Part shown: positions 26,957 through 58,238 of the stretch, one piece after another
Layout of the letters: the number at the start of each line of letters is the position of its first letter
How positions within the stretch are numbered: position 1 is the first letter of the stretch
From: a virus
IMG/VR virus record: IMGVR_UViG_3300032236_000862
Location: 1-64,000 of that record
Strand: one strand, 5' to 3'
Length of the DNA: 64,000 nt
Notes under the pieces: model-generated
Told to the model about the DNA's origin: nothing
Database searches by the model: none
Seen by the model: only the letters and a program-made list of their open reading frames with translations
Position numbers and translations under genes: made by a program

Positions 26957-27325
26957 TTAGAGGCGGTCGTACAAATAACCTTTTTCTTGTAAGTGAGTCG
27001 CTACATGCTTTGGAACTTTGTACTTTTTACCTGTTTGGAATGAATAATTGTTTCCAGCGCCAATAGTAACCATGTCTAGGTTCTCTGCTACTCGAATGAC
27101 AACCTGGTCGTCTGCAAGGCTTACGCCCACGCTTTCGATCTCGTCAATTACTGTTGGGTTTTCTGGGTTCTGAGTAAGGTCAACAACTTCAGTCTCATCT
27201 TTGTGAGCCTTTGTTTGTGTTGCCATTGAGATTTCATTAGCACGTTCTGCCAATGCCTCTGCGTTAGCTGCTAATAGAGCCTCACGCTGACGCCCTGTAA
27301 CGTCTGTAACTTTTGCTTTTGCCAC
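26957..27325 (-). CDS. Hypothetical protein downstream of the capsid gene
   Basis: ORF track; AGGAG RBS. Confidence 0.6.
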   Translation of the reverse strand: MAKAKVTDVTGRQREALLAANAEALAERANEISMATQTKAHKDETEVVDLTQNPENPTVIDEIESVGVSLADDQVVIRVAENLDMVTIGAGNNYSFQTGKKYKVPKHVATHLQEKGYLYDRL

Positions 27326-43720: not shown

Positions 43721-44233
43721 TTACTTGATCTTGATTACCTTTGGTTGAAGAGCTTCGGGTAGCTCCTGCTCTAGGGTAATACGAAGCAGACCGTCCTTAA
43801 GCTCTGCTCCCTTGACTACGACGTACTCCGCCAGTACGAACTCTTGCTTGAAGTCACGGGTAGCGATTCCCTTATGGATCGGCTCCTTCTTAGATGCCTC
43901 TAATTGGCCTTCTACGGTCAGCTGGAGCTCTTTCACGCTAATGGTGATGTCATCCTTACTAAAACCGGCTACAGCCAGTTCTAGGACGTATGTGTCCTCA
44001 TCCTTGTAGATGTTGTATGGAGGATAGCTTGCTGCCTTAGCTTGGGCTGCGACATGCTTGAATGTATCCAATAGGGGATCAAATCCGATTGCCCATCGGT
44101 TGAACTGTGGGAATAGCGAAGTAATGGTTACTTCTGCTGGAGTTGATACCTTTGGATAGGACTTAGGTGCCCATGGATCTGGAAAACGATCGCTATGTGG
44201 GTCTTTGCCTGGGTTTTGATATGGGTGTGCCAT
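43721..44233 (-). CDS. hsp20: Small heat shock protein Hsp20
   Basis: YPPYNI, ELAVAGF, HKGIA.R.F, L.DGLL.I, I.I tail. Confidence 0.95.
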   Translation of the reverse strand: MAHPYQNPGKDPHSDRFPDPWAPKSYPKVSTPAEVTITSLFPQFNRWAIGFDPLLDTFKHVAAQAKAASYPPYNIYKDEDTYVLELAVAGFSKDDITISVKELQLTVEGQLEASKKEPIHKGIATRDFKQEFVLAEYVVVKGAELKDGLLRITLEQELPEALQPKVIKIK

Positions 44234-44857: not shown

Positions 44858-45210
44858 GGTGTAACTCTACCACAGGCCACTGCCTGAAGTTATAGTTTCC
44901 TGAGAATTATAAAACCTAGCACCTCTAAAACGTCTCCCTATGATCATAGGACGCTTGGAATCCCCCGCCAATTTTTTAAAATGTAACATGCGTCACTTCG
45001 GCCACTGCCCACCTGTATATAGTCTCAACCCTCCGTCTGGTCTGCCAAAAGCACTAGGCGACGAAGTTTAACCATAGGGGTATCCCATAAGGGGCAGAAG
45101 GAAAGGAAAGAGACTCTCTCGCTCCCTAGCATCAGGTGGTGTTAGCCGTTCGAATCGGTACTAGGGGCGGAATAAGGGAAGTGTAGTACCTTATCCAGAA
45201 AGGTAGACCT

Positions 45211-45717
45211 ATGTCTACAATTCTAGAGGCGTTTCAGCCTATCGCCAAGATAGCCAACTCGTATGAGGAGACTATCGTGTCAATGTCCGCCAAGGCATTT
45301 GCGGATTACCCGCTTGCTAATGTCGGAGATGTTGCTGGTCTATTCAAGACCAAGTCAGCCGTTGACCTAGTCTGGGCAGGTTATATCTGCTCTAAGGCTA
45401 CCAATGCTCAGGGTACACACCTCTCATACGCAGAGGTTAAGCCGTATCTTGAGGCGATTCGGCAGTTCCGCTCGCAAATCACCATTCACGATTCAAGCGT
45501 GATGATGATTGCTGAACTCATCACTTGGGATGCCCAAGTGGTTGAGGCAGATGTAGTGCTTGACCGCCAGTTGAGCACTATCAAGAACGCTCTTGTCAAG
45601 GCTCTTGACGAGACCGTTACGAAAGACCCAGCGAAAGTGGCTCAACTCCGCCTTGACATCTTGGAATTGCTTCCAAAGGTGTTCGCTGTTGAGGCTGGCG
45701 TTCTTCAGAACGCTTAG
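45211..45717 (+). CDS. Hypothetical protein, first plus-strand early gene
   Basis: ORF track; GAAAGG RBS. Confidence 0.7.
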   Translation: MSTILEAFQPIAKIANSYEETIVSMSAKAFADYPLANVGDVAGLFKTKSAVDLVWAGYICSKATNAQGTHLSYAEVKPYLEAIRQFRSQITIHDSSVMMIAELITWDAQVVEADVVLDRQLSTIKNALVKALDETVTKDPAKVAQLRLDILELLPKVFAVEAGVLQNA

Positions 45718-46021
45718 TCTCTAGGAGAGTATGGGGTGTAACGCCCCATACCCTTCCTATGTTCATAGGTAATTGCTATCTATGAGCATAGGTGGGGGAA
45801 TCAGATGGCTTTATGCCTATAACCTGGTGACGTATGTCTGCCACACAGTGCTATGGAACGTTAGCACGCCCCAGAGAGAGTCTCTAGTCCTTTATTCAAC
45901 GAATAGGCCACTGGCCGTATAGCCCTTCCGCTGTGTAGGCGTAAGACCAGGCTATACGGCTGGTGGCTTGTCTATTATCAGGTAGTTCCAAGAACCAACT
46001 ATCTACCTGAGGAGGTAAGAA

Positions 46022-46144
46022 ATGGGTGATAACTGTTATCACTGTGGTGATGTATGTACCTGTTCGATTCGGGATTGGATGTGTGCTGATTGTCAGCGCA
46101 ACGCCTTCTCCTGTGAGTGCGGGTCATATGAAGATGAAGACTAA
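46022..46144 (+). CDS. Cys-rich mini-protein, 40 aa
   Basis: MGDNCYHCGDVCTC...CADC...CECG; GGAGG RBS. Confidence 0.55.
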   Translation: MGDNCYHCGDVCTCSIRDWMCADCQRNAFSCECGSYEDED

Positions 46145-46164
46145 TGCTCAGAAAGGAGCAAACT

Positions 46165-46386
46165 ATGAAGATGATCTATCTCGCATATATCTATGGCTGG
46201 GCTAGTGGAGAGCCATACAACAAGATGCTTGGCGTTTATAGCACTCGTGAGAAGGCTGAGCGTGCCATTAAGCAGTATCTTGCTAAGTACCCTAAAGACT
46301 ACGATGGTGAAGCCTTCGAGTCAGATGTATTCCCTGAGGTGCTGGACTCTTATACAGCCAAGGTAACAAAGGATATGATGCTATGA
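46165..46386 (+). CDS. Hypothetical protein
   Basis: GVYST.EKAE motif; AAGGAG RBS. Confidence 0.65.
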   Translation: MKMIYLAYIYGWASGEPYNKMLGVYSTREKAERAIKQYLAKYPKDYDGEAFESDVFPEVLDSYTAKVTKDMML

Positions 46387-46525
46387 GCCTCCTAGACCCT
46401 ATGCAATCAGGTCTGCCTATCACTATCTTGTGGTTGGGTAGTACCTCTTTCTTCCTCTATGCCTGGTTCACAAGGAATAAGTAGGTTGGGAAGTCCCCGC
46501 CGATTTTTTCAGAAAGGATGCACCT

Positions 46526-46726
46526 ATGGAATGTACTGAGTGCGGTACACCTGTTGACCCTGAGAGATGGGCGATAGGTAAGGACACCTGTCCACCCTGT
46601 GGTAGTGCGCAAGCCAACCACCAGATTAGATCCAATTACAACCTTGTCCTTATGCCTAAGCAAGGCTTTGGCATAGTCACGGCAAATAGCCCTGACTTAC
46701 TCAATGGAAGGAGTTCCGGACGATGA
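46526..46726 (+). CDS. DksA/TraR-like C4 zinc finger protein
   Basis: C..CG..V..ER......C..C. Confidence 0.6.
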   Translation: MECTECGTPVDPERWAIGKDTCPPCGSAQANHQIRSNYNLVLMPKQGFGIVTANSPDLLNGRSSGR

Positions 46727-46941
46727 GCACAGAGAACTGGATTGAACCATACGAATGTATGGAGGATTACCAAGGCCACAACTTCATTGAGTTGGATGGC
46801 AACACCGGCACTATGTTCTGTACCCGATGCCGGATGCGTACCTATGTAGATATCTGTATTGGTATCTGTGGTAAGTCTATTGACCCACGTGATACAGATA
46901 TTGAGCGTGACACTATCTATGTATGGCACACCGCTTGCTAG
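46723..46941 (+). CDS. Cys-rich hypothetical protein
   Basis: ORF track; ATGA overlap. Confidence 0.55.
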   Translation: MSTENWIEPYECMEDYQGHNFIELDGNTGTMFCTRCRMRTYVDICIGICGKSIDPRDTDIERDTIYVWHTAC

Positions 46942-47177
46942 TGCTCCCAACATAAACATTCCCCGCCCATTTTTCCAGGCTGTAGTCTTTGAGAGATACA
47001 CAGGTCGCCACGTGCTGGCGTAAAGGTATTCCTGTGTGTCTCTTACCCTCTACAGAAAGGAAATACTATGTTCGGCTGGCTTATCACCTTCCTGCTTGCA
47101 GGTTGGCTCGTAATGACCCTTATCAACAAGCAGTATGAAATTGACCAAGAAGACTACGATTTTAGAGAGGAAGGACG

Positions 47178-47492
47178 ATGAATGGTAACAACATCGCAGT
47201 ACTCACAGAGCGGAACGACCTATCTTGGCACGATAGGGCTAGTTGCGTGGGAATGGACACGGAGTTATTCTACTTTGAGCCTAAACTCAAAGGGCAAGCG
47301 AAGCGAGATAAAGCACGTATCGCTAAGGCTATCTGCGCAGGTTGTCCGGTCAAACTCCAATGCCTCGTTGACGCTGTCACCAGAGATGATAGACACTCTA
47401 TTCAGGGAGGTACTACCCCAGAGGAGCGAGGTTCTCTCCACGAGAGCGTTGCCTGCTGGCCATTAGAAAAGGTGCTAGCGTGTATCAAGTAA
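47178..47492 (+). CDS. whiB: WhiB-family transcription factor
   Basis: W...A.C...D..LF, AK.IC..CPV...CL, GG.T..ER; the usual GVWGG is here SIQGG. Confidence 0.9.
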   Translation: MNGNNIAVLTERNDLSWHDRASCVGMDTELFYFEPKLKGQAKRDKARIAKAICAGCPVKLQCLVDAVTRDDRHSIQGGTTPEERGSLHESVACWPLEKVLACIK

Positions 47493-47728
47493 TCACACAG
47501 ACCAGCACATATGAGGTCAACACAAACAACCGCACATTCCGCCGTATCCCAGACAAAGGCCCTGGCCTAGTTAGGGATTTAGAGTGGACACCATATATCA
47601 GCATTAAGCACCCATTCATTGGCCAACCTATGACCATAGAGTGGTCACTCAATGGCTCCCGCAAAATTCGTACCACAACACCCGTTGTGGACATAGACCT
47701 ACTGGAAGGAGGGGACGATGAAGGCTAG
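47480..47728 (+). CDS. Hypothetical protein
   Basis: ORF track; T..STYE...TTPV pattern. Confidence 0.6.
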   Translation: MYQVITQTSTYEVNTNNRTFRRIPDKGPGLVRDLEWTPYISIKHPFIGQPMTIEWSLNGSRKIRTTTPVVDIDLLEGGDDEG

Positions 47729-48251
47729 ACACAAGACTTGGCAGTTTAATAAGTTCTGGATATCTGTTGGTATGAGCAAGCAGTTTGCTATCAGTATCTA
47801 TATCAACGAGTTATTCGCAGGCATTGATATTGGATGCTTCTACTTCTCCATCGAATACTAATCTTATGTGAGGAGGCGGGGTTGAGCGTGTGAGGGTACG
47901 CTCCCCCGCCTGTTTTTCTGTGTGATGCGATGCCTCCACAGCACACCCGATGAAAATCTCTGTGCTGTGCTGGCTTCGGATTACATAGGTAATCCAGGGT
48001 CATACACATCCGCACAAAAGAAAGAGCGTGGTAGGCGTTGAGCTAAGGCTCCGAACGAAATAGTTCCGGCTATCTCTAATAGGGCTGAACCCATCGGGCC
48101 GATCCCCTTGTCCTCGTAAGACTTCGTGGGCTTACACGGCATTGTGCTGCTATCGAGTACTGCGGAATAGTATGCAAATGAACTCACAACGCACGGAGAG
48201 TATAAACCGTGTATGCACCAACACAAACAACTACACAAAGGAGGGCCAGTA

Positions 48252-48665
48252 ATGGCTAGAATCACCAACCTCATCAACAAGGCTGATGCTCTCAAGCAGT
48301 TAAACGCTGCACTGAAGAAGGCTAACGCTGAGTACGATAAGGACTCCAAAGCATATGTGGCCGCTAAAGCCATCTATGACAAAGAGATAGTTGCATACAA
48401 CAAAGCCGTTGTTGCAGCCGGTATCGCATACCTAAAGTCTGTTGATACCAACAAAGCAAATCAATTCAGTGCTAGGTACGGAAGTACCATAACACACGTT
48501 GACTTCAACATCAACATTGGATTGAAAGAACCAAGCCTAGACAAGGCACAGCCGTATAGAAATATGATTGAGCGTATTGAGAAGCAGATTCGTTCTGTTT
48601 CAATTATGTCCGGCGAAACCTTCAATGCCAGCATGTTGCATGACGATTTCTTCAACTGCTTGTAA
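48252..48665 (+). CDS. Hypothetical coiled-coil protein
   Basis: GGAGG RBS before MARIT. Confidence 0.65.
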   Translation: MARITNLINKADALKQLNAALKKANAEYDKDSKAYVAAKAIYDKEIVAYNKAVVAAGIAYLKSVDTNKANQFSARYGSTITHVDFNINIGLKEPSLDKAQPYRNMIERIEKQIRSVSIMSGETFNASMLHDDFFNCL

Positions 48666-48749
48666 TACGGGTAACGCCGGTTGGTTTCTAAAGTTCTTCC
48701 TGAGGTAAAAGAACTCCTGTCCTAAGCATGACAAGGCTAAACTGCTTAC

Positions 48750-48822
48750 GCCCTCATAGTTCAATGGATAGAACATCATCGTCCTAAGGTGAGTGTTGCC
48801 AGTTCGATTCTGGCTGAGGGCA
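48750..48822 (+). tRNA. tRNA-Arg(CCT)
   Basis: Acceptor GCCCTCA/TGAGGGC, D arm GTTC/GAAC, anticodon stem TCATC/GGTGA with loop GTCCTAA, T arm GCCAG-TTCGATT-CTGGC; CCA not encoded. Confidence 0.9.
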
Positions 48823-48919
48823 CGGCACGGAGTGCGGGATGACTTGTAGTCAGAAAACCTCCCTCGCCAAGAGCTGAGCATCTCTATAAACTGCTCATTA
48901 CTAATAGAAAGGAGGAACT

Positions 48920-49186
48920 ATGGAACCGGAAGACTTGCACGGTAAGTTTGAGTATTCAGCCACACCAGAGCACAAGACCAACATCTTGCCACTCAGGTGG
49001 TTTGCCAATGCTTGCAATCATCTATCAAGTTTTGCGATAGAGCGAGCATTAGATCATGAAGACTTTGCCCATTACAACGGCACTGAACTATCACGAGCAG
49101 GATATAGATGGTGGAAGATTTGGGCCATCATCAACATTCCCTACGATAAGTGGGGCACAACCTATCTAGTAGATTGGCATAAATAA
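48920..49186 (+). CDS. Hypothetical protein
   Basis: AAAGGAGG RBS. Confidence 0.65.
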   Translation: MEPEDLHGKFEYSATPEHKTNILPLRWFANACNHLSSFAIERALDHEDFAHYNGTELSRAGYRWWKIWAIINIPYDKWGTTYLVDWHK

Positions 49187-49419
49187 TGCAACCAACACAA
49201 ACAACCCTCTCACAGATAAAAGCCGAAGCCGCAAGCCGAGGCAACGTCGTATTCATTGATGATTCCCTACTTGAATCGGCCAAACGATTAGAATTCATTG
49301 TAGATGCAGTTGCCCACAAGGGACTCACCTACAAGGAAGCGTCAGCCTTATGGGCTGATGGCATTGACACTCTGCACACAAGTGTAGAGACAATAACAAC
49401 CTCCGAAAGGGGCCTATAA
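49186..49419 (+). CDS. Hypothetical protein
   Basis: TAATG coupling. Confidence 0.55.
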   Translation: MQPTQTTLSQIKAEAASRGNVVFIDDSLLESAKRLEFIVDAVAHKGLTYKEASALWADGIDTLHTSVETITTSERGL

Positions 49420-49420
49420 A

Positions 49421-49693
49421 ATGGCAAAAGGTAAAGGCGGAGCACCAGCTCCTAAAGCAAACACAGCAGGCGAACGCCAGAATGGCAAAGCCCGCAAGAA
49501 AAACCCAGGACCAGCACAGCCAGAGAAGACCAACTTCACACACGTGAATGGTCGTTCGGCTGCTAGTCACGCCAAGCGTGAGGCTTGGAAGGCTGCCGGT
49601 GGTCGTGCAAACCACGAGTCAATCCCTCACTGGAAGACCGGCAAGGTGTACAAGGCACCGGTCTATTCAGTATTTGCTAAGGCACTAGTGTGA
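49421..49693 (+). CDS. Basic hypothetical protein
   Basis: ORF track; RBS. Confidence 0.6.
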   Translation: MAKGKGGAPAPKANTAGERQNGKARKKNPGPAQPEKTNFTHVNGRSAASHAKREAWKAAGGRANHESIPHWKTGKVYKAPVYSVFAKALV

Positions 49694-50013
49694 GCAAGAA
49701 GATAAAGCGCAAGCACGTTGTTGCCACACTTGAGCAACAGATACTCGAGGAGCACGATGACCTGCATTGGGATGACCATCAGCATAGTCGTGCATATCAC
49801 AGCGGGCTTATGGATGGCTTGGGGTTTGCCCTCAAGTTACTCAAGCCTGATTCAACTGTGCTTCCCCTCACATCCGTGTGGTTCGATGAGGAACCAACAC
49901 AAACATCCGAGCGCCAGCGTGAACAACTCATCGAAATTCAGTATGTTGACATGGCCGATCCTATTCCTGTAGCCTGTTATGCAGGGTTGTTTGAAACAGT
50001 GGAGGCACCATGA
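49690..50013 (+). CDS. Hypothetical protein
   Basis: GTGA overlap. Confidence 0.55.
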   Translation: MSKKIKRKHVVATLEQQILEEHDDLHWDDHQHSRAYHSGLMDGLGFALKLLKPDSTVLPLTSVWFDEEPTQTSERQREQLIEIQYVDMADPIPVACYAGLFETVEAP

Positions 50014-50765
50014 GTTATAAGTTACGTTCATACCAATACTGGTGTGATTACTTAGAGGGCGGGCGTAAGAAATATATACGCCCACTCTATGAGTATGGCA
50101 TGACCATCGAGAAAGCTAGCAAGTTTCAGCTTCCCGGTGGTGACCTACACATTAAGGCTAATTGGGCCGGTAATTACCCATTCATCATTGTTCACAGTGA
50201 TGACTCATTCACCCTACAAGGTGGTGTCATTAACAGTTATTGGGGTGGGAGCTGGAACATACTGAAGTCACAGGGTGTTCGCTATCGCATCTGGAAGTAC
50301 ACAGGCGTAAACGTCTTTCAACGTAACTATGAAATCAAGGTTATAGATGAAAACGCAGGTCTTACCCCATCCAAGATACAAGGTTGTCGCCAATGTAAGC
50401 AAACAGGTAAACAAGACGGTTGGTGTAGTCCAACTACTTGTTTTGATGGCGACTTCTATGACACACCTAACGGAGATTCTGTGTATGCATGCCCTGAACA
50501 CCCTGATGCCCAATCACCACATGGATCGTGGCACAGGTTTCACCTTATAGCGTGCACCCACGGACAAATGAAAGGCCACACACTACCACGAAGCCAAGAG
50601 TGTTATTACTGTAAGGGTTCAGGCAAGCGTGACTATGGCAACAAACCGATTTCTTTACTCTGGGATGGTTCCCCACTTAGGGTAAAGGATAAAAAGATAG
50701 TAAAGAAACCACTAACCGAACTAGAAAGGATACTAGCCAATCATGTCCAATCGAGTAGCGTATGA
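50010..50765 (+). CDS. Hypothetical protein with DnaJ-like CxxCxxxG motifs
   Basis: CRQCKQTG and CYYCKGSG. Confidence 0.6.
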   Translation: MSYKLRSYQYWCDYLEGGRKKYIRPLYEYGMTIEKASKFQLPGGDLHIKANWAGNYPFIIVHSDDSFTLQGGVINSYWGGSWNILKSQGVRYRIWKYTGVNVFQRNYEIKVIDENAGLTPSKIQGCRQCKQTGKQDGWCSPTTCFDGDFYDTPNGDSVYACPEHPDAQSPHGSWHRFHLIACTHGQMKGHTLPRSQECYYCKGSGKRDYGNKPISLLWDGSPLRVKDKKIVKKPLTELERILANHVQSSSV

Positions 50766-51207
50766 CATGGCAGAACCAATCAACGGAATGATAAATCACT
50801 CTGTTGCTGGGAATATGCTAGACCACGTAATTGCTCTCAACAGCATGCAGTTACCGGGTAATTTTCTAAATTACACGAGTAACAACAGCAGTTATCGAGA
50901 TGCAATCCTCAATCGCTTGATTGAATCGCCTGTGTATGCATTGCAACTAATGCTTGCAGGTGTTAGGTCATCTAAAAACAATACAGACAACCTGCGTATC
51001 TTTAGCGAGTATGCAGCCGCTCTGTCCTATGTTGCAGGTGATACGGAACTAGCCGGAGAGATTATCCTCCGCAATGATCCATCAACAAATAGTCCTCTGC
51101 TCAGGAGCATTGCAGAGTCACTATCAGTAGGCGTCAGCTCTGACACCTTCAAAGAGTTACTACGTGCTAGCACAACACAGGCAGCCCAACTGCTTGCTAA
51201 TGCGTAG
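50743..51207 (+). CDS. Hypothetical helical protein
   Basis: ORF track. Confidence 0.55.
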   Translation: MSNRVAYDMAEPINGMINHSVAGNMLDHVIALNSMQLPGNFLNYTSNNSSYRDAILNRLIESPVYALQLMLAGVRSSKNNTDNLRIFSEYAAALSYVAGDTELAGEIILRNDPSTNSPLLRSIAESLSVGVSSDTFKELLRASTTQAAQLLANA

Positions 51208-51249
51208 CCAACACAAACAAACCAACAGCCTGAGAAAGGGAACCGTTCA

Positions 51250-51561
51250 ATGGCAATAGATGGACCAGTTAATCCTTGGTCAGACCAGATGCCCGCCCAA
51301 GACTATATAAGTTGTGATAGTTGCGGTCATGGTATCGGTAAGACTCAAGCATTCACACAAATCTACAACCTTAGATATCGTGCAAATCAGTATTTCCATG
51401 CCGACCATCTGGGTTGTTCTGCAGCTACTCAACTCAAGAATAGCCGCCCACGTATAGTGCTCAATCGTTACCGCAAAGGCATCATCAGCGAGCTGATGTA
51501 TGGCGGAGATGGTGGCGAGGGAGACAGCTATGCCGATAAGGTTGATGATCTTGTCGAATAA
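51250..51561 (+). CDS. Hypothetical protein
   Basis: ORF track; RBS. Confidence 0.55.
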   Translation: MAIDGPVNPWSDQMPAQDYISCDSCGHGIGKTQAFTQIYNLRYRANQYFHADHLGCSAATQLKNSRPRIVLNRYRKGIISELMYGGDGGEGDSYADKVDDLVE

Positions 51562-51755
51562 GTAACACCGTTGTTGGTTGGTCAAGCCTACTTCAAGCAT
51601 ACTTGATCGAACCTAGACCAGAGTAATTTAAAGGCTCACGCATTAGTAGTACGTGATAACTAATGTATGCGAGATGAGAAGATAATGTGCGGAGGCATCC
51701 AGTCCCTGTGAGCATCAGGGGTAGGCCAACCAACAACCCTTACTAAGGAGAGCAT

Positions 51756-51995
51756 ATGTGTCACGAATGTGGCGATGAAAACTACGGAGATATGAATCAG
51801 ATTCCACCTGAAGAGATGGAAGAGTTCATTGACTTCGCATGTCTGCAAGTATCTAAAGTAATAGATAAAGCAGAAGATAAAGGATTCCTTTACCAACTCA
51901 TTACTGAGTGGCCAAGGGAAAGGCAAGCGGCATTCGCTCTTGCTACGATACTAGAGGAACGATTAAACTCGTCCTGGCAAGAAGAAGGGGAATAA
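51756..51995 (+). CDS. Hypothetical protein
   Basis: AAGGAG RBS. Confidence 0.6.
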   Translation: MCHECGDENYGDMNQIPPEEMEEFIDFACLQVSKVIDKAEDKGFLYQLITEWPRERQAAFALATILEERLNSSWQEEGE

Positions 51996-53384
51996 ATGGA
52001 CATCTCAATGTTCGTTGAATCGTACGAGCCTACTATGGGCAACCACCGTCGTCAGATATTGGTGGTTCCATACAAGGACGGCATCAATCTCTACTCTCGT
52101 GTGACTGATGGTACTAAGGGCACTCACAATAAGTGGGAGCCAACAACCCTAGACACACTAACAAGTGAGGTTAAAGATAACGAGCAAACAACTCGTCGTC
52201 CTGTAGGTGTGTACGTAACATCTGCTGATGTGCGTGCCATTGATAGCAAGGGCTATTCTCCAGTCCTAACTACCAAGGCAGTAGGCGCACATAACAAGTC
52301 CATTGCAGAAGTTAAATCCGATGTGATGGATATCGTAACAGGCTTCTACTCTCAAATCGAGGTAGGAGATGACCAACTGGAGGAATACGTGATAGATAAC
52401 CGAGCAACAACTAGCCCGCTAGTCGTTCCCGTGCCAACACAAACACTCGATGCTCCGGCCCAACAAGCCGCTCCTGCATTCAATGTGTCGTTGGCCACAG
52501 TTCCACCATTGCATCTAGCACAACGCTATGTGCATCGCAAGGTCTACAACGTTGAAGACTTTGCTATCTTTGATACCGCTCGTGCTGATGGTATCAACGT
52601 GCTTATCTACGGCCCAACCGGCCCTGGTAAGACAACAGCTGTAGAAGCGTGGGCCGCTGATCGTGGCTTGCGTATGGCTACAGTATCTGGCAACGCATCT
52701 ATGGAGTCACGCCAGTTGTTCGGTGGCTTCATTCCTGACGGCAATGGTAGTTATGGCTGGATTGACGGTCCAGTAACTGACGTTGTCCGTAACGGTGGTG
52801 TTCTACTACTGGACGAGATGAACTTCATCAGTCCTAAAATCTACACCACACTCTATCCACTAACCGATGGTCGTCGTACTATCACTCTGCTCGACCATAT
52901 GGGCGAGACAATCACAGCGCATCCTGATCTTACGATCTTTGCGACTATGAATCCTGACTACGTAGGTACAACACCTCTCAACTATGCAATGCGTAACCGC
53001 TTTGATATCCAGTTGATGTGGGATTACGACGATGCTGTCGAGGAGAAGCTTGTTAGTAGCAAGGCTCTTCGTACACTAGTCAAGTCTCTTCGTACTGAAG
53101 CAGCTAAGGGTCAGTACGATACTCCAATCTCTACTAACATGCTGATCGAGTTCAGTGACTTTGTAACCAAGCTTGGTTATGACTTCGCAGTTGAGAACTT
53201 TATCGCTCACTTCGGCTCTGACGAGCAAGCGTCTGTACGTCTGGTCTTCCAGACACATCAGTACAACATCCAATCTGACTTCGGTATTGCACCGGAGATC
53301 AAGAACGATGAGTCAGAATCAACACAAACACAATCTGATCGTTTAAAAGCATGGGTCGCAACAGCCAATTCAATGACGGTCTAA
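51996..53384 (+). CDS. MoxR/CbbQ-type AAA+ ATPase
   Basis: GPTGPGKT, W.DGP, LLLDEMN, ATMNP.Y.GT, A.RNRF. Confidence 0.9.
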   Translation: MDISMFVESYEPTMGNHRRQILVVPYKDGINLYSRVTDGTKGTHNKWEPTTLDTLTSEVKDNEQTTRRPVGVYVTSADVRAIDSKGYSPVLTTKAVGAHNKSIAEVKSDVMDIVTGFYSQIEVGDDQLEEYVIDNRATTSPLVVPVPTQTLDAPAQQAAPAFNVSLATVPPLHLAQRYVHRKVYNVEDFAIFDTARADGINVLIYGPTGPGKTTAVEAWAADRGLRMATVSGNASMESRQLFGGFIPDGNGSYGWIDGPVTDVVRNGGVLLLDEMNFISPKIYTTLYPLTDGRRTITLLDHMGETITAHPDLTIFATMNPDYVGTTPLNYAMRNRFDIQLMWDYDDAVEEKLVSSKALRTLVKSLRTEAAKGQYDTPISTNMLIEFSDFVTKLGYDFAVENFIAHFGSDEQASVRLVFQTHQYNIQSDFGIAPEIKNDESESTQTQSDRLKAWVATANSMTV

Positions 53385-53395
53385 GGAGGTGGTAA

Positions 53396-55225
53396 ATGTT
53401 TGACGACAATCTAAATGAGCGTTATATGGAACAGCGTGATGAGGAATCTCAATTACGCTCTATCAGATTAAACGCTCTATGCCGTGTCTACGAACAAGCT
53501 GACAGGGTTATTACCGGTGATCCGGTTCTAGTCCACGTGGTGCCTGATGGTCCTGCGCCTGCTTGGTCTGATGGCCAGGCTATCTACATCAACGCTAGTG
53601 AGATCGAAGACATTGATCTTGAAGCGTTATCTCAGGTCAATGGCCTGAACTTCCACGAGCTAGCTCACCATCTGTATACTCCCCGCAAGGGAACAGTATT
53701 CATGAAGGAAGTTATCAATCGTGGACTAATGCAAGCGGCCAATATGCTGGAGGACCAGCGTATCGAGACGTTGCTTGTAGCCCGCTATCCATCAGTAGCG
53801 CCGTTCTTAACTGCAACGTGCGCTCGTTATCTAGGTAGTACCCCTGAGGAAGCGGAAGGTGCTTATATGCTCCTACGTGGTCGCAGGTATCTACCTATTC
53901 AGATACGTGAAGCATTCAGGGACTTGTTCTATGAGCCTAAGCTCATCCCTGTAATTGCTGACATCGTAGACCAGTATAGGTTGCTTGTATTCCCCCGTGA
54001 TTACGACAAAGCAATCGAACTCATCCAACGTTGGAACGATGAGGTAATCGGCCAGTTGCCTAACCCACAGAATCTTCCTAAGGGTATGACCGGCTGTACT
54101 GATCGTGATGCCGTAGGTAAAGGTCGTCCTGAACCTGGCAAAGCCCAGGAGAAAGACGCTGAACGTGCCAAGGGTATGGGTAAGGCGGAATCAACTACGC
54201 CCAACACAAACAAACCCACAGCACCTGCACCAACAACACAGCAAGAAGCACTTGATATGGCAAATGCTAAGCCAACAAATGGTGAAGCATCGCCCCCATC
54301 AATCACTCCTGGTACAGGCCATCATGAAAGCCTAGGTGGTATCCCAGACAGTGTGCACGACATGCTAACGGATGTTATTGACACCGTTATGTCTAGCAAG
54401 GAAGTGCTTCAAGATCTAAAAACCAAGCAAAAGGTAATTGTAGGTGGTGACGGTAAGCATACCGATACCATCAAGCGTGGTCGTTATGACACAGCGCCTG
54501 TTCCATCAGACGCAATGGTTACCTATCGTAAGTTCGCACGTGAACTAGAACGCTTACGTGATGAATGCGAGCCTGCTTGGCACAAGGAGGAGGCTAGTGG
54601 CAAGCTCAATGTCCAGCGTGTTATTCGTGGATGTGAGATTGATGAAGCCTTTGACCGCTGGGATGAAGGCACGGACGGCACTGATGTGGAGGCTGTGATC
54701 CTCGTGGATCGCTCAGGCTCTATGTCCGGTGGCAATGACCGTGGCGCATCCATTGCGTCTTGGACTATCAAGCGTGCACTAGAAGGCATCGGCGCTCCGG
54801 TGACCGTGTACTCGTTTGATGACGAGACGGAGTTGGCTTACAATCGAACAGAACTAGCCAACAAGACGCACTACAAGTTCATCTACGGCAGTGGTGGCAC
54901 AGAGCCTTATAGTGCCTTGCTTGCTGCAGAGCAAGTTCTTCTATCATCTCGTAAGAAGAACAAGATGTTGTTCATTGTTACTGATGGCGCCTTTGGTGAA
55001 AAAAGTGACGAGGTTATCGAACGTATGGGTAAGCGTGGCATTCTTACCGCTATGTCCTTAATCATGGGCGACAATGACATGAAGTTCTACCAAGAACGAT
55101 ATGGCTACAGTGACGATACGTTTAGACACGGTGTAGAAATCTATGCCCGTATCAATACGGCTCGTGACCTGCTGCCATTTGCTAGATCAGTAGTTACCGG
55201 AGCAATCAGAAAGCGAGGAAGATAA
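53396..55225 (+). CDS. Metallopeptidase-like / vWA domain protein
   Basis: HELAH, N.LED.RIE, SG.L, MIDAS DRSGS, GGT, TDG. Confidence 0.85.
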   Translation: MFDDNLNERYMEQRDEESQLRSIRLNALCRVYEQADRVITGDPVLVHVVPDGPAPAWSDGQAIYINASEIEDIDLEALSQVNGLNFHELAHHLYTPRKGTVFMKEVINRGLMQAANMLEDQRIETLLVARYPSVAPFLTATCARYLGSTPEEAEGAYMLLRGRRYLPIQIREAFRDLFYEPKLIPVIADIVDQYRLLVFPRDYDKAIELIQRWNDEVIGQLPNPQNLPKGMTGCTDRDAVGKGRPEPGKAQEKDAERAKGMGKAESTTPNTNKPTAPAPTTQQEALDMANAKPTNGEASPPSITPGTGHHESLGGIPDSVHDMLTDVIDTVMSSKEVLQDLKTKQKVIVGGDGKHTDTIKRGRYDTAPVPSDAMVTYRKFARELERLRDECEPAWHKEEASGKLNVQRVIRGCEIDEAFDRWDEGTDGTDVEAVILVDRSGSMSGGNDRGASIASWTIKRALEGIGAPVTVYSFDDETELAYNRTELANKTHYKFIYGSGGTEPYSALLAAEQVLLSSRKKNKMLFIVTDGAFGEKSDEVIERMGKRGILTAMSLIMGDNDMKFYQERYGYSDDTFRHGVEIYARINTARDLLPFARSVVTGAIRKRGR

Positions 55226-55416
55226 TGTACACAATCTATGACAGCCTAACGGAGACCTTGATAGAGGTATTCAATGACTATGAATCAGCCCAGATGTTCC
55301 TGCTTCATATATCAGATGAAATCAACGATGGTGGGGCTAACCTATCTATCGAAGCTATCACTCCAGCACACGAGTGGGCTCAAGATAATGGCATCATGTT
55401 GGCATCATTAGCATGA
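55225..55416 (+). CDS. Hypothetical protein
   Basis: TAATG coupling. Confidence 0.55.
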   Translation: MYTIYDSLTETLIEVFNDYESAQMFLLHISDEINDGGANLSIEAITPAHEWAQDNGIMLASLA

Positions 55417-55565
55417 CCACTCGTCAAGAAGATCCGGCAGCATGGCTCAGTGAGATGTTGAGGCAGAGGGAACTTGACCTGCTCAACACAAACAAAGCTA
55501 TCGTACGCAACCTACTAGTCAAGCATGGGGCTGAAGATCTTATCCCTATGCTGTTGGAGGACTAA
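55413..55565 (+). CDS. Hypothetical protein, 50 aa
   Basis: Hand-translated MTTRQEDPAAWL...; ATGA overlap. Confidence 0.5.
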   Translation: MTTRQEDPAAWLSEMLRQRELDLLNTNKAIVRNLLVKHGAEDLIPMLLED

Positions 55566-55677
55566 TGATCAAATGCAATCTATGTAAGAACGTATTGGGC
55601 CAAGACGACTCGTACGTAGTTCACAGTCAAACAGCAACGTGCTGGGACTGTTACTTCGGAGAAGACACGGGAGAACG

Positions 55678-56130
55678 ATGGTAAATACATTCCTGCCATA
55701 TGCAGACTTCAAGCAAGTGGCGCAATCCCTAGACGATAGGAGACTCGGCAAGCAACGTGTAGAGGCGTTGCAGATTCTGAGGGCCAACCTGGGTCTAACT
55801 GTGGGATGGCGCAATCATCCGGCTGCTGTAATGTGGCGGGGGCATGAAGGTCTACTAGCCAAATACACCATAACAATCTGTAATGAGTGGACTAAGCGTG
55901 GCTATGTAGACAATACCAAGCAGCAAGTGATCGAACTAATGAAGCAGTACAACCTAAAGCCAATCAAGAAGCCTTGGTGGCTTGGGGCAAGCACGTTTCA
56001 TGAGAGTCATCAGTCTAACCTCAAGCGTAAGCTTCCAGAGCATTACGACTTTGATGTAGCTGACGACATGCCATACCAATGGCCAACCCCTGAAGGTACG
56101 TTCCGAACAACTAAAAAGGAGAAAGAATGA
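55678..56130 (+). CDS. Pyrimidine-dimer DNA glycosylase-like protein (MSMEG_6728/DenV family)
   Basis: TFLPY.DF...A..LD..RLGKQRVE, HPA..MW.G, EW..RGY, P.WLG. Confidence 0.85.
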   Translation: MVNTFLPYADFKQVAQSLDDRRLGKQRVEALQILRANLGLTVGWRNHPAAVMWRGHEGLLAKYTITICNEWTKRGYVDNTKQQVIELMKQYNLKPIKKPWWLGASTFHESHQSNLKRKLPEHYDFDVADDMPYQWPTPEGTFRTTKKEKE

Positions 56131-56582
56131 TAACTACAACCCGCAAAGAAGCAATCACCTTGATTGAGGAAAGCATCAACAATGTTATTCCCCTGCAAGA
56201 TGACAGGCTTGAGAAGGTCATTTATGCAGTTAACAATGACCTCGCAGTCAGGGACTGGGTCTTGGGTATGCCTAATAGGTTTACCCTTGAAGAGTCTATT
56301 GACTTTGTACGTTATATGGCCGTGCACACCACAGCATTGGATAGTGTGCCGTTCATCACAATCAATGCCGTGTTTGAGTATGAGCGTGGCAATTCAGACA
56401 AGGCTCTGTTAATGATTGACTATGTCAATGCGGTTAATAATAACTACCCATTGGCTAAGCTAATCACCAGGACTTTTGATGCAGGTTGGGCACCAGAAAT
56501 GTTTGCTCAAATGCGTCAAGAGCTGGACGCCAAAGTAATGGCGGACTGCAATGAAGAACCAATCAGAGAGGAAGACAACTAA
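56127..56582 (+). CDS. Hypothetical helical protein
   Basis: ORF track; loosely similar to 50743-51207. Confidence 0.55.
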   Translation: MITTTRKEAITLIEESINNVIPLQDDRLEKVIYAVNNDLAVRDWVLGMPNRFTLEESIDFVRYMAVHTTALDSVPFITINAVFEYERGNSDKALLMIDYVNAVNNNYPLAKLITRTFDAGWAPEMFAQMRQELDAKVMADCNEEPIREEDN

Positions 56583-56714
56583 TGTCAGACAAAATCATAT
56601 GGCAAGCAGCAATAACAGCAGATATGGTAGAAGACTGGACGGAAGATGAGATTGAAATGCTCATAGCTGACCTAGATGACGCAGTTAAATCAACCTATGA
56701 AGATTGGGAGCTAC

Positions 56715-56891
56715 GTGACTAAATACAGAGTAACTATCCATGAGCACATTATCAGTGATCTTTGGGTGGAAGCAGACAACCAAAGTGATGCCAGAGACAT
56801 AGCCGAGGAGCACATCAGCGAAGGCTTCAACGGATGGGTTGTGGATGAGATGGCCGGTTGGATCGAGACCGGTGACATCGAGGAGGTTTGA
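56715..56891 (+). CDS. Small acidic hypothetical protein
   Basis: Y.V.I.E......VEA....A pattern. Confidence 0.55.
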   Translation: MTKYRVTIHEHIISDLWVEADNQSDARDIAEEHISEGFNGWVVDEMAGWIETGDIEEV

Positions 56892-56935
56892 CCAACACAA
56901 ACAACCGAGTTATACTATATACAGAAGGGAAGTAA

Positions 56936-57163
56936 ATGAGCGATGACAGTGACCTATATGACCTGCGCCTTACCTTTAGGGTTAAACTAAAGAAATGGCG
57001 TGTAGACGACCAGCATGATCGTAACAATCAAGAGTGGTCTCTAAGATTCTGGGATAGAAACCTAGAGGAGTGGAAGATCGCTAACGAGTCGGATCTAAAT
57101 AGGCCAGGTGAGCAGGGCTATATCGAAAGCATACAAATCATTACTAATAAAAAGGGAGGGTGA
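56936..57163 (+). CDS. Hypothetical protein
   Basis: TATACT promoter and RBS upstream. Confidence 0.55.
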   Translation: MSDDSDLYDLRLTFRVKLKKWRVDDQHDRNNQEWSLRFWDRNLEEWKIANESDLNRPGEQGYIESIQIITNKKGG

Positions 57164-57170
57164 GCATGTA

Positions 57171-57407
57171 ATGCAATTTGCACAGTTTACAATCAAAACC
57201 AAGGAGATAAAGAAACTGGTAGACGCCTTAGAGACAGCCGGATTAGAGGTCAGCATGACCAACGGCAAACACCATGTAAAGGTAGTCAATCCAGGGACTA
57301 AGAAAGTAGTCTTCTTTGGACCGCAATCTCTGGGCGACCCCAGAGCTGGTAAGAACATACTAAGGGACCTGAAGAAGGTCGGATTCAATCAACAAATAAA
57401 ACTATAA
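57171..57407 (+). CDS. HicA-like (dsRBD-fold) protein
   Basis: IKKLV..LE..G..V.....GKHH.K...P, NI.RDL...G. Confidence 0.65.
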   Translation: MQFAQFTIKTKEIKKLVDALETAGLEVSMTNGKHHVKVVNPGTKKVVFFGPQSLGDPRAGKNILRDLKKVGFNQQIKL

Positions 57408-57417
57408 GGAGGGCCTC

Positions 57418-57693
57418 ATGGCCAAGGTAACTAAAACACTAAAGGCAACACTAACCAAGAACTTGTCAGTAGAAAAGGGTGGAGCATGGCTTCTCACCAT
57501 CACTGAGAGTCATCTATCTGATAGGCCTACACATTCTGCATGGGCCAACCCATCTGCTGCAAAGCGTTTCTTGAAGCAGTGGGTTATTGAGAACACACCA
57601 CGCAAGTCAATCAAGATGGTAGTTGGGGCCACAAATGACCTAGGTAAGCCAACCCATCTATCAGGTGAGCTAACATGGAAGGCTGATGCATGA
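57418..57693 (+). CDS. Hypothetical protein
   Basis: AAGGAGG RBS. Confidence 0.65.
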   Translation: MAKVTKTLKATLTKNLSVEKGGAWLLTITESHLSDRPTHSAWANPSAAKRFLKQWVIENTPRKSIKMVVGATNDLGKPTHLSGELTWKADA

Positions 57694-57816
57694 TGGACAT
57701 GGAGACTGTACTACCCCGTACCTGCAATATGTGTCATGGTACGGGGGTCGTTTACTGGGAATCAGATGACGACTTTGATGTAGAACAATGCGAGTGCCAA
57801 TACAAAGGAGAAACAA

Positions 57817-58026
57817 GTGCCTAAGTTCCGTGTACAGTTTGATACAACCCGCCAAGGTACATTTATCTTTGATGCTGAAGATAAGGACCACGCAATAGAA
57901 ATATATACCGGCCTAGTCGAGGGTACGACATACCCCGATGAAATTGATGGCTATGAGGATACAGAGGTATCAGACAGCACATACTATGAGCTAACCGATA
58001 ACTCAGGTAAGCACATAGCTGACTAA
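57817..58026 (+). CDS. Small acidic hypothetical protein
   Basis: AAGGAG RBS. Confidence 0.6.
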   Translation: MPKFRVQFDTTRQGTFIFDAEDKDHAIEIYTGLVEGTTYPDEIDGYEDTEVSDSTYYELTDNSGKHIAD

Positions 58027-58035
58027 TAGATAACC

Positions 58036-58071
58036 AAAAAGCCCCCGGCTCTTAATTGAGTCGGGGGCTTT
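58036..58071. terminator. Bidirectional terminator between convergent regions
   Basis: AAAAA-GCCCCCGGCTC...GAGTCGGGGGC-TTT. Confidence 0.85.
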
Positions 58072-58095
58072 ATGTTTGTGTTGGCCTTTTTTGGC

Positions 58096-58230
58096 CTACT
58101 CGATAGGGTCAGTAATGTCGTTTTCTAATTCGTCAAGGTCATCCTCATCGAAGTCGAAGTCATCAAAACCATCTTCGAAGTCATCTTCGAAGTCTTCGTC
58201 GTATAGGTCTGGGTTAATCTCGTCTGACAT
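58096..58230 (-). CDS. Hyperacidic peptide, 44 aa
   Basis: MSDEINPDLYDEDFEDDFEDGFDDFDFDEDDLDELENDITDPIE; AAGGAG RBS. Confidence 0.7.
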   Translation of the reverse strand: MSDEINPDLYDEDFEDDFEDGFDDFDFDEDDLDELENDITDPIE

Positions 58231-58238
58231 GTTTCTCC

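Follow-up and report, generated by a model that had tools for sequence, protein, structure and literature searches.

The early gene block and its repeated word

The window analysed here comprises 64,000 nt (positions 1 to 64,000) of the IMG/VR virus record IMGVR_UViG_3300032236_000862, a phage with a genome of 100,328 bp. The phage belongs to a large family of uncultured lake phages, the ~100-kb freshwater actinophages. Its genome contains a single block of plus-strand transcription with about 30 mostly small genes, among them genes for WhiB, tRNA-Arg, a CobS-like AAA ATPase, a VWA/CobT-like protein, a DenV-like glycosylase and a HicA-like protein. Outside this block all genes lie on the minus strand. 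The phage encodes its own primase, helicase, polymerase and RecA-like protein, and it also encodes a 1142-aa protein without a match in Atlas, PDB, Pfam or PHROGs. The WhiB gene indicates that the host phylum is Actinobacteria, as for the Cluster A mycobacteriophages. The block and its terminal operon are delimited by the following features:

45123..58026, plus strand: the genome's only plus-strand transcription block (ORF maps, Pfam/PHROG and tRNA search); bears all co-oriented sites
56888..56916, plus strand: promoter TTGACC-17-TATACT, the top promoter match in the region, leading into a conserved operon of five small genes (56936-58026)
58038..58071, no strand assigned: bidirectional intrinsic terminator hairpin, where two converging transcription units meet

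The 11-mer CAACACAAACA occurs in 12 exact copies on the two strands of the whole genome, ten on the plus strand and two on the minus strand. A genome-wide map reproduced the originally listed coordinates as well as the gaps of 701 to 1409 nt between the plus-strand copies and of 1180 nt to the inverted copy. The naive expectation of about 0.03 copies was matched by dinucleotide-preserving shuffles, which yielded 0.03 copies on average and never more than one. One-mismatch variants are almost absent from the genome, and the block and its vicinity hold a single one, CAACATAAACA. The word is G-free, and the complementary strand is GT-rich. The sites are listed below, together with the strand ends discussed later from sequencing runs X1 and X10 (the caret marks the break).

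46948..46958, plus strand: variant site CAACATAAACA with C at position -1; the array's first site, used as a bona fide site in L010, L011, L012 and L042
47518..47528, plus strand: site 1; 5' end at 47521 (CAA^CAC), an X1 contig start with the TruSeq adapter fused before it
48219..48229, plus strand: site 2, 22 nt 5' of the Shine-Dalgarno-led start codon at 48252; 5' end at 48222, an adapter-preceded contig start
49193..49203, plus strand: site 3, 6 nt past the stop codon of the upstream gene; no break in the contig rows displayed
49895..49905, plus strand: site 4, within a 107-aa gene whose stop codon follows about 110 nt later; position kept in relatives
51209..51219, plus strand: site 5, 1 nt past a stop codon, with the next start codon 30 nt further on; 5' end at 51212 in runs X1 and X10
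52435..52445, plus strand: site 6, deep inside the CobS-like gene, at +439 nt, within a hypervariable linker; position found family-wide, including in L017 with its own spelling
53320..53330, plus strand: site 7, in the CobS-like gene, 54 nt from its end
54202..54212, plus strand: site 8, deep inside the VWA/CobT-like gene, at +806 nt, within a low-complexity linker; 5' end at 54205, with the adapter before the contig start
55484..55494, plus strand: site 9
56893..56903, plus strand: site 10, the last co-oriented site, 1 nt past a TGA stop codon; fills the spacer of the sigma-70/sigma-A promoter, likewise in most relatives
58073..58083, minus strand: the single inverted site, flanked by the RNR gene's stop codon on one side and the terminator hairpin on the other
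27212..27222, minus strand: isolated exact 11-mer within a structural gene; G at position -1

Neighbouring sites in the array are about 1 kb apart, and their spacing is more even than random placement would give (CV 0.28, P ~1e-4), in agreement with the quasi-regular intervals originally described. Every copy lies on the locally coding, transcribed strand. About half of the sites are intragenic, with all three reading frames represented, and the distance from a site to a start codon varies from 10 to 36 nt. The mixture of intergenic and intragenic copies in different frames had likewise been noted correctly. The inverted site stands directly beside the terminator shared by both converging operons, and the plus-strand terminator owes its U-rich tail to the complement of this site. 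Because the copy at 27212 is preceded by G where the other sites have C or T, it is probably not a true member of the array, judging from its sequence.

Conservation and extent of the element

About 55 related IMG/VR contigs retain the same site layout. The co-oriented copies number 10-12, next to one inverted copy. In 109 non-redundant sites, position -1 is always C or T, the information content falls to background one base beyond the 13-mer, and the flanks are not conserved. The full element is thus 12-13 nt long, Y-CAACAYAAACA-(A/T), with sharp edges. The spelling is specific to each lineage and co-varies among its sites (for example CAACAT, CGACAC, CAACGT, CGCAAC and CAAGGC). In nearly all relatives one inverted copy follows the array and is spelled as the array of its lineage; in L003 the inverted copy reads CGACAC versus CAACAC at the plus-strand sites. 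The adjoining terminator hairpin is also kept. In the long genes the sites are squeezed into protein linkers. These deep intragenic sites appear to be under selection at the nucleotide level, because they lie in hypervariable linkers and in three frames, and one of them persists in L017 despite its different spelling.

A search of cultured phage records for near-identical sequences gave no match, and the cultured relatives are only distant Gordonia and Brevibacterium phages with 26-36% identity. The Gordonia phage DalanDe has no comparable array, and in distant relatives without the motif other repeated words form local tandem clusters, none of them an array of this kind. The literal motif does not occur in the phage literature. 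The original prediction was of a functional, polar and strand-specific signal on the early block, with absence from close relatives named among the observations that would speak against it. This part of the prediction is upheld by the conservation and co-variation of the sites in relatives.

It is extremely improbable that the word is a polar DNA signal of the Chi or KOPS type read by the host, one of the analogues originally listed. Such a signal would be consistent with the polar copies and with a GT-rich complementary strand. However, the word is not enriched in the 306 actinobacterial genomes searched, including small Nanopelagicales-type genomes, where it occurs in 0-5 copies per genome versus 0-3 for a reversed-word control. 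This null result stands independently of the unpublished genomes G020 and G276. The few copies examined in these genomes are mostly antisense within genes, and the sole cluster found (G235) is a repeated coding module. Moreover, the word is missing from 87% of the phage genome, with the sites spanning the other 13%. A nut/box type of antitermination site, also listed originally, would call for more than the word itself, and neither a conserved adjacent hairpin (boxB) nor a boxA-like sequence or other conserved flank was found at the sites.

Sites are often located immediately after a stop codon and ahead of the following Shine-Dalgarno sequence, or immediately 5' of a tRNA gene or terminator hairpin. 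Many copies before Shine-Dalgarno sequences or tRNA genes, or after hairpins, would suit a phage-specific promoter or transcription start signal, and exact conservation with lineage variants is also seen in the promoters of phage RNA polymerases. This explanation is nevertheless highly improbable. At several sites the word runs straight into the Shine-Dalgarno sequence, and a start site downstream of the word would not fit; some sites are deep within genes; no -10 element occurs at a constant distance; and the inverted copy would fire directly into the terminator. In addition, no RNA polymerase or sigma factor was found among the ORFs scanned.

Strand ends at the repeated word

The evidence from fragment ends consists of assembled contigs rather than raw reads. 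Run X1, with a coverage of ~500x, is probably the source sample of the phage record. In this run, four of the seven contig junctions over 12 kb coincide with positions 47521, 48222, 51212 and 54205, each precisely three bases after the start of the word, so that the contigs begin at its fourth base, CAA^CACAAACA. All four adapter-bearing loose ends among those listed precede these positions, with the TruSeq adapter fused directly to CACAAACA, and among the loose ends listed none matches on the opposite side of the four breaks. Contigs that bridge the sites are also present. These breaks affect four of the ten exact plus-strand copies, the other six being without a demonstrated break. In the independent run X10 (2012), two contigs are separated at site 5, the first ending at 51210 and the second beginning at 51212. 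Additionally, L029 derives from an independent IMG/VR contig whose first bases are CACAAACA, at a homologous array site, and two more contigs terminate no more than 11 nt from a nick position. Site breaks were not seen in runs X2 and X6. In public contig collections, adapter sequence fused to CAYAAACA was found in 27 contigs, a chance-level number that includes none from this phage family.

The word-bearing strand of the phage DNA in the sample, as represented by assembled contigs, therefore has a discrete 5' end between A3 and C4. Library fragments that start at a fixed base on the plus strand only indicate a site-specific nick, and the one-sidedness of the adapter-bearing ends indicates a nicked strand after end-repair instead of a double-strand cut. 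Based on this evidence, the word is probably the target of a site- and strand-specific DNA-nicking activity of this phage lineage, acting on the non-template strand, and the sequence that this activity recognizes is likely to be 5'-Y-CAA^CAYAAACA-3'. Such a nick was outside the list of mechanisms originally considered. From that list the polarity of the signal has stood, while stoperators, nut/box sites, Chi/KOPS and an mRNA tag are not what the DNA ends point to.

One-sided ends could also arise if they were double-strand cuts used on one side only, as in serial packaging starts, or if they were the starts of DNA chains formed by priming or strand displacement, instead of standing nicks. Both pac-type packaging and nascent strands give such ends, the primase, helicase, polymerase and RecA-like protein mentioned above are phage-encoded, and 11-12 nt is the length of a DnaG primer. 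Still, this origin of the ends is improbable. Packaging from eleven alternative starts over 11 kb, with a further inverted one, would be without precedent, and priming sites would not be confined to 13% of the genome. The contig depth shows neither a step nor a doubling, whether downstream of the sites or in the interval from the last plus-strand site to the inverted one. A related arrangement, staggered nicks at 56896 on the plus strand and 58080 on the minus strand that would make a 1.2-kb terminal repeat, was rejected for now, as there was no doubling of depth and no contig break in that interval.

A DNA-binding protein that recognizes the asymmetric sites in the manner of the stoperators would make them an operator at the 56.9 kb promoter and orientation-dependent roadblocks to elongation elsewhere, thereby shutting off the early block. 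The sites are asymmetric, 12-13 bp long and, on either strand, point in the direction of local transcription; short intergenic gaps hold many of them, and one lies in a consensus promoter spacer in most relatives. The site in the promoter spacer would also fit a DNA-binding regulator. The host phylum is also shared with the Cluster A mycobacteriophages. In contrast, binding leaves the one-sided fragment ends at a fixed base unaccounted for, the sites cover only 13% of the genome, and they are invariant, lacking the graded strengths usual for operators. The genome has neither an integrase nor an HTH_3 protein, and the first gene of the block, upstream of all sites, cannot encode the reader. As a replacement for nicking, binding of this kind is unlikely. 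It could instead be an added layer, should the nickase or a catalytically inactive reader remain on the sites.

Finally, the word could act in mRNA as a G-free single-stranded tag for an RNA-binding protein or endoribonuclease of the phage or host, with a role in processing, decay or antitermination. This is quite improbable. While the word is strictly sense-strand and frequently occupies the positions described above, next to stop codons and Shine-Dalgarno sequences or before tRNA genes and terminator hairpins, a tag would not account for the DNA ends, its distance to start codons ranges from 10 to 36 nt, and the deep intragenic sites would lead to destruction of the two largest mRNAs. The terminal operon carries the HicA-like gene, and its own transcript would be without the word. 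However, this gene was not found in four near-complete (98-100%) array-bearing genomes.

Several candidate readers were considered. A HicA fold is supported for the HicA-like protein (Pfam E 3.7e-4; the top Foldseek match is HicA3, with a probability of 0.92), which was rejected as a universal reader because its gene was not found in the four genomes. The first gene of the block was dismissed because its product is so divergent, with 16-22% identity, among phages with an identical word. The TGT/DpdA-like gene beside the inverted site is conserved, but it is present in motif-less relatives too. Its product has no sequence match in PDB, and the observed break is on the G-free strand. Pairing of a guide RNA with the inverted copy is unlikely in view of an A-C mismatch in L003. 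The annotated genes include no recognisable nickase, whether HNH, GIY-YIG or of another type, most of the small genes being without annotation. Sigma factor, NusG, HTH_3, integrase and RNA polymerase families were not found among the ORFs scanned, in which three large proteins match nothing. Tyrosine and serine integrases were not found in the phage, a six-frame search yielded no HTH_3 domain, and no regulator was recognised among the 80 proteins scanned.

Possible roles of the nicks and comparison with known systems

If the word is a nicking target, the layout of the sites would have specific consequences. The sites occur on the sense, non-template strand only, with eleven in the 13-kb early block and one inverted on the sense strand of the converging operon. 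RNA polymerase would still read early genes across a non-template nick, while the same nick would be a template-strand break for anything reading in the opposite direction. Early transcription would therefore tolerate the array, which would yet be polar. Candidate purposes include torsional freedom of the first-expressed DNA, a barrier to antisense or read-through transcription, and an entry point for recombination-dependent replication.

More tentatively, and with considerable doubt, the nicks may be a programmed polar device and not a by-product. With the non-template strand broken at intervals of ~1 kb, early transcription could proceed freely and without torsional constraint. Early transcripts would then meet a fail-safe run-off stop at the inverted nick, which lies 9-10 nt beyond the terminator hairpin. 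Plus-strand nicks would halt read-through from the converging operon, and head-on forks broken at them would feed recombination-dependent replication. If true, this would provide a function for the nicks of phage genomes, a question that dates from the 1960s.

The Cluster A mycobacteriophages possess operators and stoperators that are bound by L5 gp71 or the TipsytheTRex repressor (PMC9283540, PMC6550527). Like the present sites, these are asymmetric actinophage sites of ~13 bp that are oriented with transcription and often intergenic, with one overlapping a promoter and spellings that co-evolve between lineages. Despite these similarities, Cluster A phages are temperate, and their sites are distributed genome-wide and bound by a two-domain HTH repressor without DNA breakage. 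The phage described here has no integrase or recognisable repressor, its sites are confined to a 13-kb block and one boundary copy, and physical strand ends are found at the sites.

Site-specific one-strand interruptions have been known for ~50 years in the coliphages T5/BF23 and later in phiKMV-like and tf-like phages, with no accepted function and no enzyme identified in the cited literature (PMC3517423, PMC11780129). The T5 nicks, five of them major and many minor, follow a loose consensus, and the nicks of phiKMV-like phages were reported on the non-coding strand (PMC3517423). In contrast, the sites described here are all identical and on the coding strand.

The closest likeness is to Pseudomonas phage tf and the LUZ24-like phages (Bruynoghevirus), whose localized single-strand interruptions occur at 5'-TACT/RTGMC-3' (WACTRTGAC in Rembedalsseter; PMC3517423, PMC11780129). 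The statistics of the present word agree with those of the nick motifs in tf (PMC3517423) and in Rembedalsseter and 60 relatives (PMC11780129). In this group, as here, a short exact word occurs 9-14 times on one strand with near-variants almost absent, and it is concentrated in one region, the genome as a whole having two converging gene sets. The copies lie within and between genes, mostly on the coding strand, at positions common to relatives and with spellings that co-vary by lineage, and the break is at a fixed base within the word. In contrast, the present word is unrelated and has 12-13 nt versus 9, the nick is deduced from assembled sequencing data versus gels, ligase tests and primer extension, and the phage has an Actinobacteria host and a genome of ~100 kb. 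The host phylum and the longer motif are new for phage nick motifs. Adapter-fused contig ends in public assemblies can expose nick motifs of uncultured phages, and the dozens of natural spelling variants would allow the nickase to be found by covariation. Overall, the informative difference is the layout: sites strictly on the non-template strand of a single 13-kb early operon, evenly spaced at ~1 kb even within long genes, with one obligatory, conserved inverted copy at the converging terminator. Neither even spacing nor confinement to a single operon has been reported for the known nick systems, and this layout turns the purpose of the nicks into specific tests of transcription polarity, topology and replication restart.

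The repeated word and its gene block

The original prediction placed 12 copies of the 11-nt word CAACACAAACA in the window, and all 12 are present exactly where it reported them. A map of the whole 100,328-bp genome indicated that these 12 copies are the full set. In dinucleotide-preserving shuffles, the mean was 0.03 copies and the maximum was one. One-mismatch variants are nearly absent genome-wide; within or close to the gene block described below, the single example is CAACATAAACA at 46948 on the plus strand. From the genome and its relatives 156 sites were collected, of which 109 were retained after keeping those with dissimilar flanks. In these 109 sites, the conserved unit is 12-13 nt long: C or T is found without exception at position -1, the 11 core positions hardly vary, A or T predominates at position +12, and the information content is at background directly outside. 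At 27212 the base at position -1 is G, and this copy probably arose by chance or has decayed. The word itself is built as a tandem repeat of CAA(A)CA (CAACA-CAAACA), and its variation within and between genomes consists almost entirely of transitions, at positions -1, 2, 5, and 6.

IMG/VR classes the 100,328-bp record, whose first 64 kb form the window, as complete with terminal repeats. Its phage genes include those for terminase, portal, virion proteins, family A DNA polymerase, a RecA-like protein, DnaB-like helicase, DnaG-type primase, SNF2 helicase, and ribonucleotide reductase. The WhiB gene and the VWA protein, whose sole cultured relatives are from Gordonia and Brevibacterium phages, point to an actinobacterial host. 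The genome apparently has three WhiB-like genes, two of which (74632-74970 and 84733-85080, both minus strand) rest solely on BLAST cross-hits to the WhiB genes of relatives. All genes are on the minus strand save one block at ~45.1-58.0 kb, and the eleven co-oriented sites (46948-56893) are all within this plus-strand block. Given the placement of the block and of the inverted site, every site is on the local sense (non-template) strand. The features of the region are as follows.

47178-47492, plus strand: WhiB gene (Pfam E 2e-16)
56936-58026, plus strand: conserved operon of five small genes, driven by the promoter TTGACC-17-TATACT and ending at the bidirectional terminator
57171-57407, plus strand: HicA-toxin-like protein of 78 aa (Pfam HicA_toxin E 3.7e-4)
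58038-58071: bidirectional terminator hairpin, where two transcription units converge
58073, minus strand: inverted site, between the ribonucleotide reductase stop codon and the terminator hairpin
60310-61779, minus strand: TGT/DpdA-like gene (PHROG queuine tRNA-ribosyltransferase, E 8e-56)

The block also contains a gene for a DenV-like pyrimidine-dimer DNA glycosylase (55639-56130, plus strand; Pfam Pyr_excise E 1.4e-20), a DNA-incising enzyme that is absent from several array-bearing loci. Two further minus-strand genes lie toward the beginning of the long minus-strand unit, one proteasome-subunit-like (42063-42629; Pfam Proteasome E 3.8e-7; 78% identical in the relative L065) and one for an HSP20 small heat-shock protein (43721-44233).

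Neighbors among the eleven sites are 570-1409 nt apart (coefficient of variation 0.28), and random placement was as even in about 1 of 10,000 trials. Even spacing is likewise found in most relatives. About half of the sites are intergenic, often 1-2 nt past a stop codon and 10-36 nt ahead of the next start, and about half are intragenic, where all three reading frames are used. Deep sites are found at +439 nt in the CobS-like ATPase gene and at +806 nt in the gene for the VWA/CobT-like protein, in both cases at a conserved position within a hypervariable protein stretch. That these sites keep their place in such stretches shows that selection acts on the DNA word and not on the peptide. The conserved deep site in each of these two long genes also shows a pressure against long gaps. 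The last plus-strand site occupies the spacer of the promoter TTGACC-17-TATACT, the best sigma-70-type match in the region, and this arrangement is found again in most relatives. The operon downstream encodes proteins of 66-75 aa, a HicA-like protein, a protein of ~91 aa, a 44-aa CxxCxGxG zinc-ribbon protein, and a protein of ~70 aa.

Conservation and candidate readers of the word

The word is exact, oriented, and evenly spaced on the sense strand, and it is both conserved and co-varying among relatives. IMG/VR was searched first with the VWA protein, then with a VWA alignment, yielding 77 loci. The original prediction named absence from close relatives among the results that would refute it, and ~55 of the 77 loci do carry the array, with 4-12 co-oriented copies. 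These loci usually possess exactly one inverted copy, adjoining a terminator hairpin 1-3 kb past the last copy. In five relatives of 89-100% estimated completeness, copies are found in the array and at the inverted boundary, with at most two elsewhere. Where a lineage has another spelling, its plus-strand copies and its inverted copy share it, and the 3' half AAACA is unchanged across all spellings.

Lineage spellings of the word in IMG/VR relatives
L012, L042: CAACATAAACA
L013: CGACACAAACA
L044: CAACGTAAACA
L045: CGCAACAAACA
L017: CAAGGCAAACA

The VWA protein of L017 is only 31% identical, and the CobS-linker site is kept there in L017's own spelling. The same locus (L017:6849-13379) has five copies of GATTGACGAG and four of TTTACCTGATAGT, on the plus strand only. 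In some relatives (L010:3413, L011:6449, L046:8555, and L065:14322), a GC-rich terminator hairpin follows a plus-strand site within 1-3 nt, an order that matches the inverted site; the stems of L046 and L065 reach into the AAACA half of the word.

A host signal of the Chi/KOPS type, as originally suggested, would be expected to be frequent in host chromosomes. Across 306 actinobacterial genomes, small Nanopelagicales-type ones among them, counts of the 12-mer are 0-5 per genome, close to the 0-3 of a reversed-word control, so the suggestion is not supported for the genomes searched. Two of these genomes (G020 and G276) are unpublished, and the result is independent of both. The actinobacterial copies inspected are mostly antisense and inside genes. 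The sole cluster, seven co-oriented copies of CCAACACAAACA in 45 kb of an actinobacterial chromosome (G235:C1:2854728-2899637), lies inside repeats of 4.6-kb periodicity, with flanks near-identical over at least the 133 bp read. It is a repeated coding module, probably a modular gene, and is unrelated to the phage element.

A phage promoter is a poor fit as well. No RNA polymerase or sigma factor gene was found among the phage ORFs scanned, the word has no fixed -10 element, a Shine-Dalgarno sequence abuts it at several sites, and the inverted copy would fire into the terminator. Similarly, neither an integrase nor an HTH_3 protein was found in the phage, which argues against a lysogenic repressor. 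The first gene of the block, which is upstream of all sites, was also rejected as the reader because it is only 16-22% identical among phages with identical words.

The word might instead be a tag at the RNA level, with the HicA-like protein as its reader. An AlphaFold model (alpha-beta-beta-beta-alpha) supports the HicA fold; its top Foldseek match is HicA3 (4p78_C; probability 0.92), with an invariant His, and the conserved 91-aa protein that follows may be its partner. Most array-bearing relatives have the HicA-like gene, but it was not found in four near-complete array-bearing genomes, which led to rejection of this reading.

In every relative, the TGT/DpdA-like gene lies 1-2 genes past the inverted site, and in L068 and L078 it directly adjoins that site. 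Its identity stays at 51-63% even in cases where that of the VWA protein is only 31-34%, and its product has no sequence match in the PDB. Three TGT triplets occur in the complement of the word, corresponding to the UGU context read by tRNA-guanine transglycosylases. The observed break is on the strand opposite these triplets, so any link between this gene and the word is conjectural.

Strand ends at the word

No RNA runs containing phage sequence were found. DNA runs were compared over 46500-58500, with strand ends read from contigs and not from raw reads. In run X1, which has ~500x coverage and is probably the sample of origin, eight contigs span the region, and four of the seven junctions are at 47521, 48222, 51212, and 54205. 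All four coincide with base 4 of a site, CAA^CACAAACA, and the contig before each junction extends 29 nt past it, as expected where a k=31 graph branches. At these places, four listed loose ends have the Illumina TruSeq adapter ACACGACGCTCTTCCGATCT, in full or as just the final 13 bases, abutting CACAAACA on the plus strand. No other end among those listed bears adapter, a further 35 loose ends being outside that set. Because the adapter is fused in front of CACAAACA, many library fragments must start exactly at base 4 of the word. No mirror-image ends opposite the break positions were present among the loose ends listed. X1 contigs also cross the sites, and six of the 10 exact plus-strand copies have no break among the X1 rows listed.

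Two independent hints point the same way. Run X10 (2012, ~8x) has a contig end at 51210 and the next contig start at 51212. The IMG/VR contig behind the relative L029, from a different metagenome, has CACAAACA as its first bases, at one of its array sites, and the ends of two more contigs lie no more than 11 nt from a nick position. Runs X2 and X6 have no break at the sites. Discrete plus-strand 5' ends at word position 4 are found, then, at four sites in X1, at one of these in X10, and, in a relative, at a single homologous site.

When DNA breaks near a nick, library end repair should set one fragment end where the nicked strand has its 5' terminus and leave the partner fragment with a variable end, while a double-strand cut is expected to yield two-sided ends. 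From this standard chemistry, a plus-strand nick between A3 and C4 would produce exactly the one-sided ends seen here.

Probable localized interruptions and known nicked phages

Based on this evidence, it is reasonably likely that the array represents a new form of the localized single-strand interruptions of phages. The original prediction of a polar, functional signal holds, but most likely none of the mechanisms it listed applies, as the 5' ends at position 4 favor a nick. Among these mechanisms, a stoperator-like DNA-binding role (PMC9283540) is consistent with the orientation rule and with the site in the promoter spacer, and it could coexist with nicking, but it leaves the strand ends unexplained.

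If the sites are nicked, a phage-specified nickase would cut the sense strand. Nicks in the non-template strand let RNA polymerase pass, whereas breaks in the template strand stop it, and sense-strand placement may have been selected for this reason. More speculatively, the array might make the early block torsionally free and act as a polar barrier. The inverted nick, 9-10 nt past the terminator hairpin and in the template strand of the early transcripts, might serve as a fail-safe stop. The plus-strand nicks might likewise stop read-through from the converging operon, and by breaking head-on forks they could feed recombination-dependent replication.

Comparable words are known from two groups of phages. 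Phage tf has 14 top-strand nicks within 5'-TACT/RTGMC-3'; this word is confined to the top strand, and its single-substitution variants are almost absent. Two gene sets converge in the tf genome, and 11 of the 14 lie in its left half (PMC3517423). Relatives of tf have similar nick-word positions with a slightly altered spelling (PMC3517423). In Rembedalsseter and 60 related phages, WACTRTGAC is found on one strand, in and between genes, mostly on the coding strand and concentrated in one genome region, and the authors call the function of the nicks unknown (PMC11780129). The statistical properties of these motifs are the same as those of the word studied here, for which we infer the nicks from contigs. 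In contrast, the actinophage word is longer and unrelated in sequence, and the host is probably actinobacterial. Its sites are also evenly spaced and restricted to a single operon, with an obligatory inverted copy at the converging terminator.
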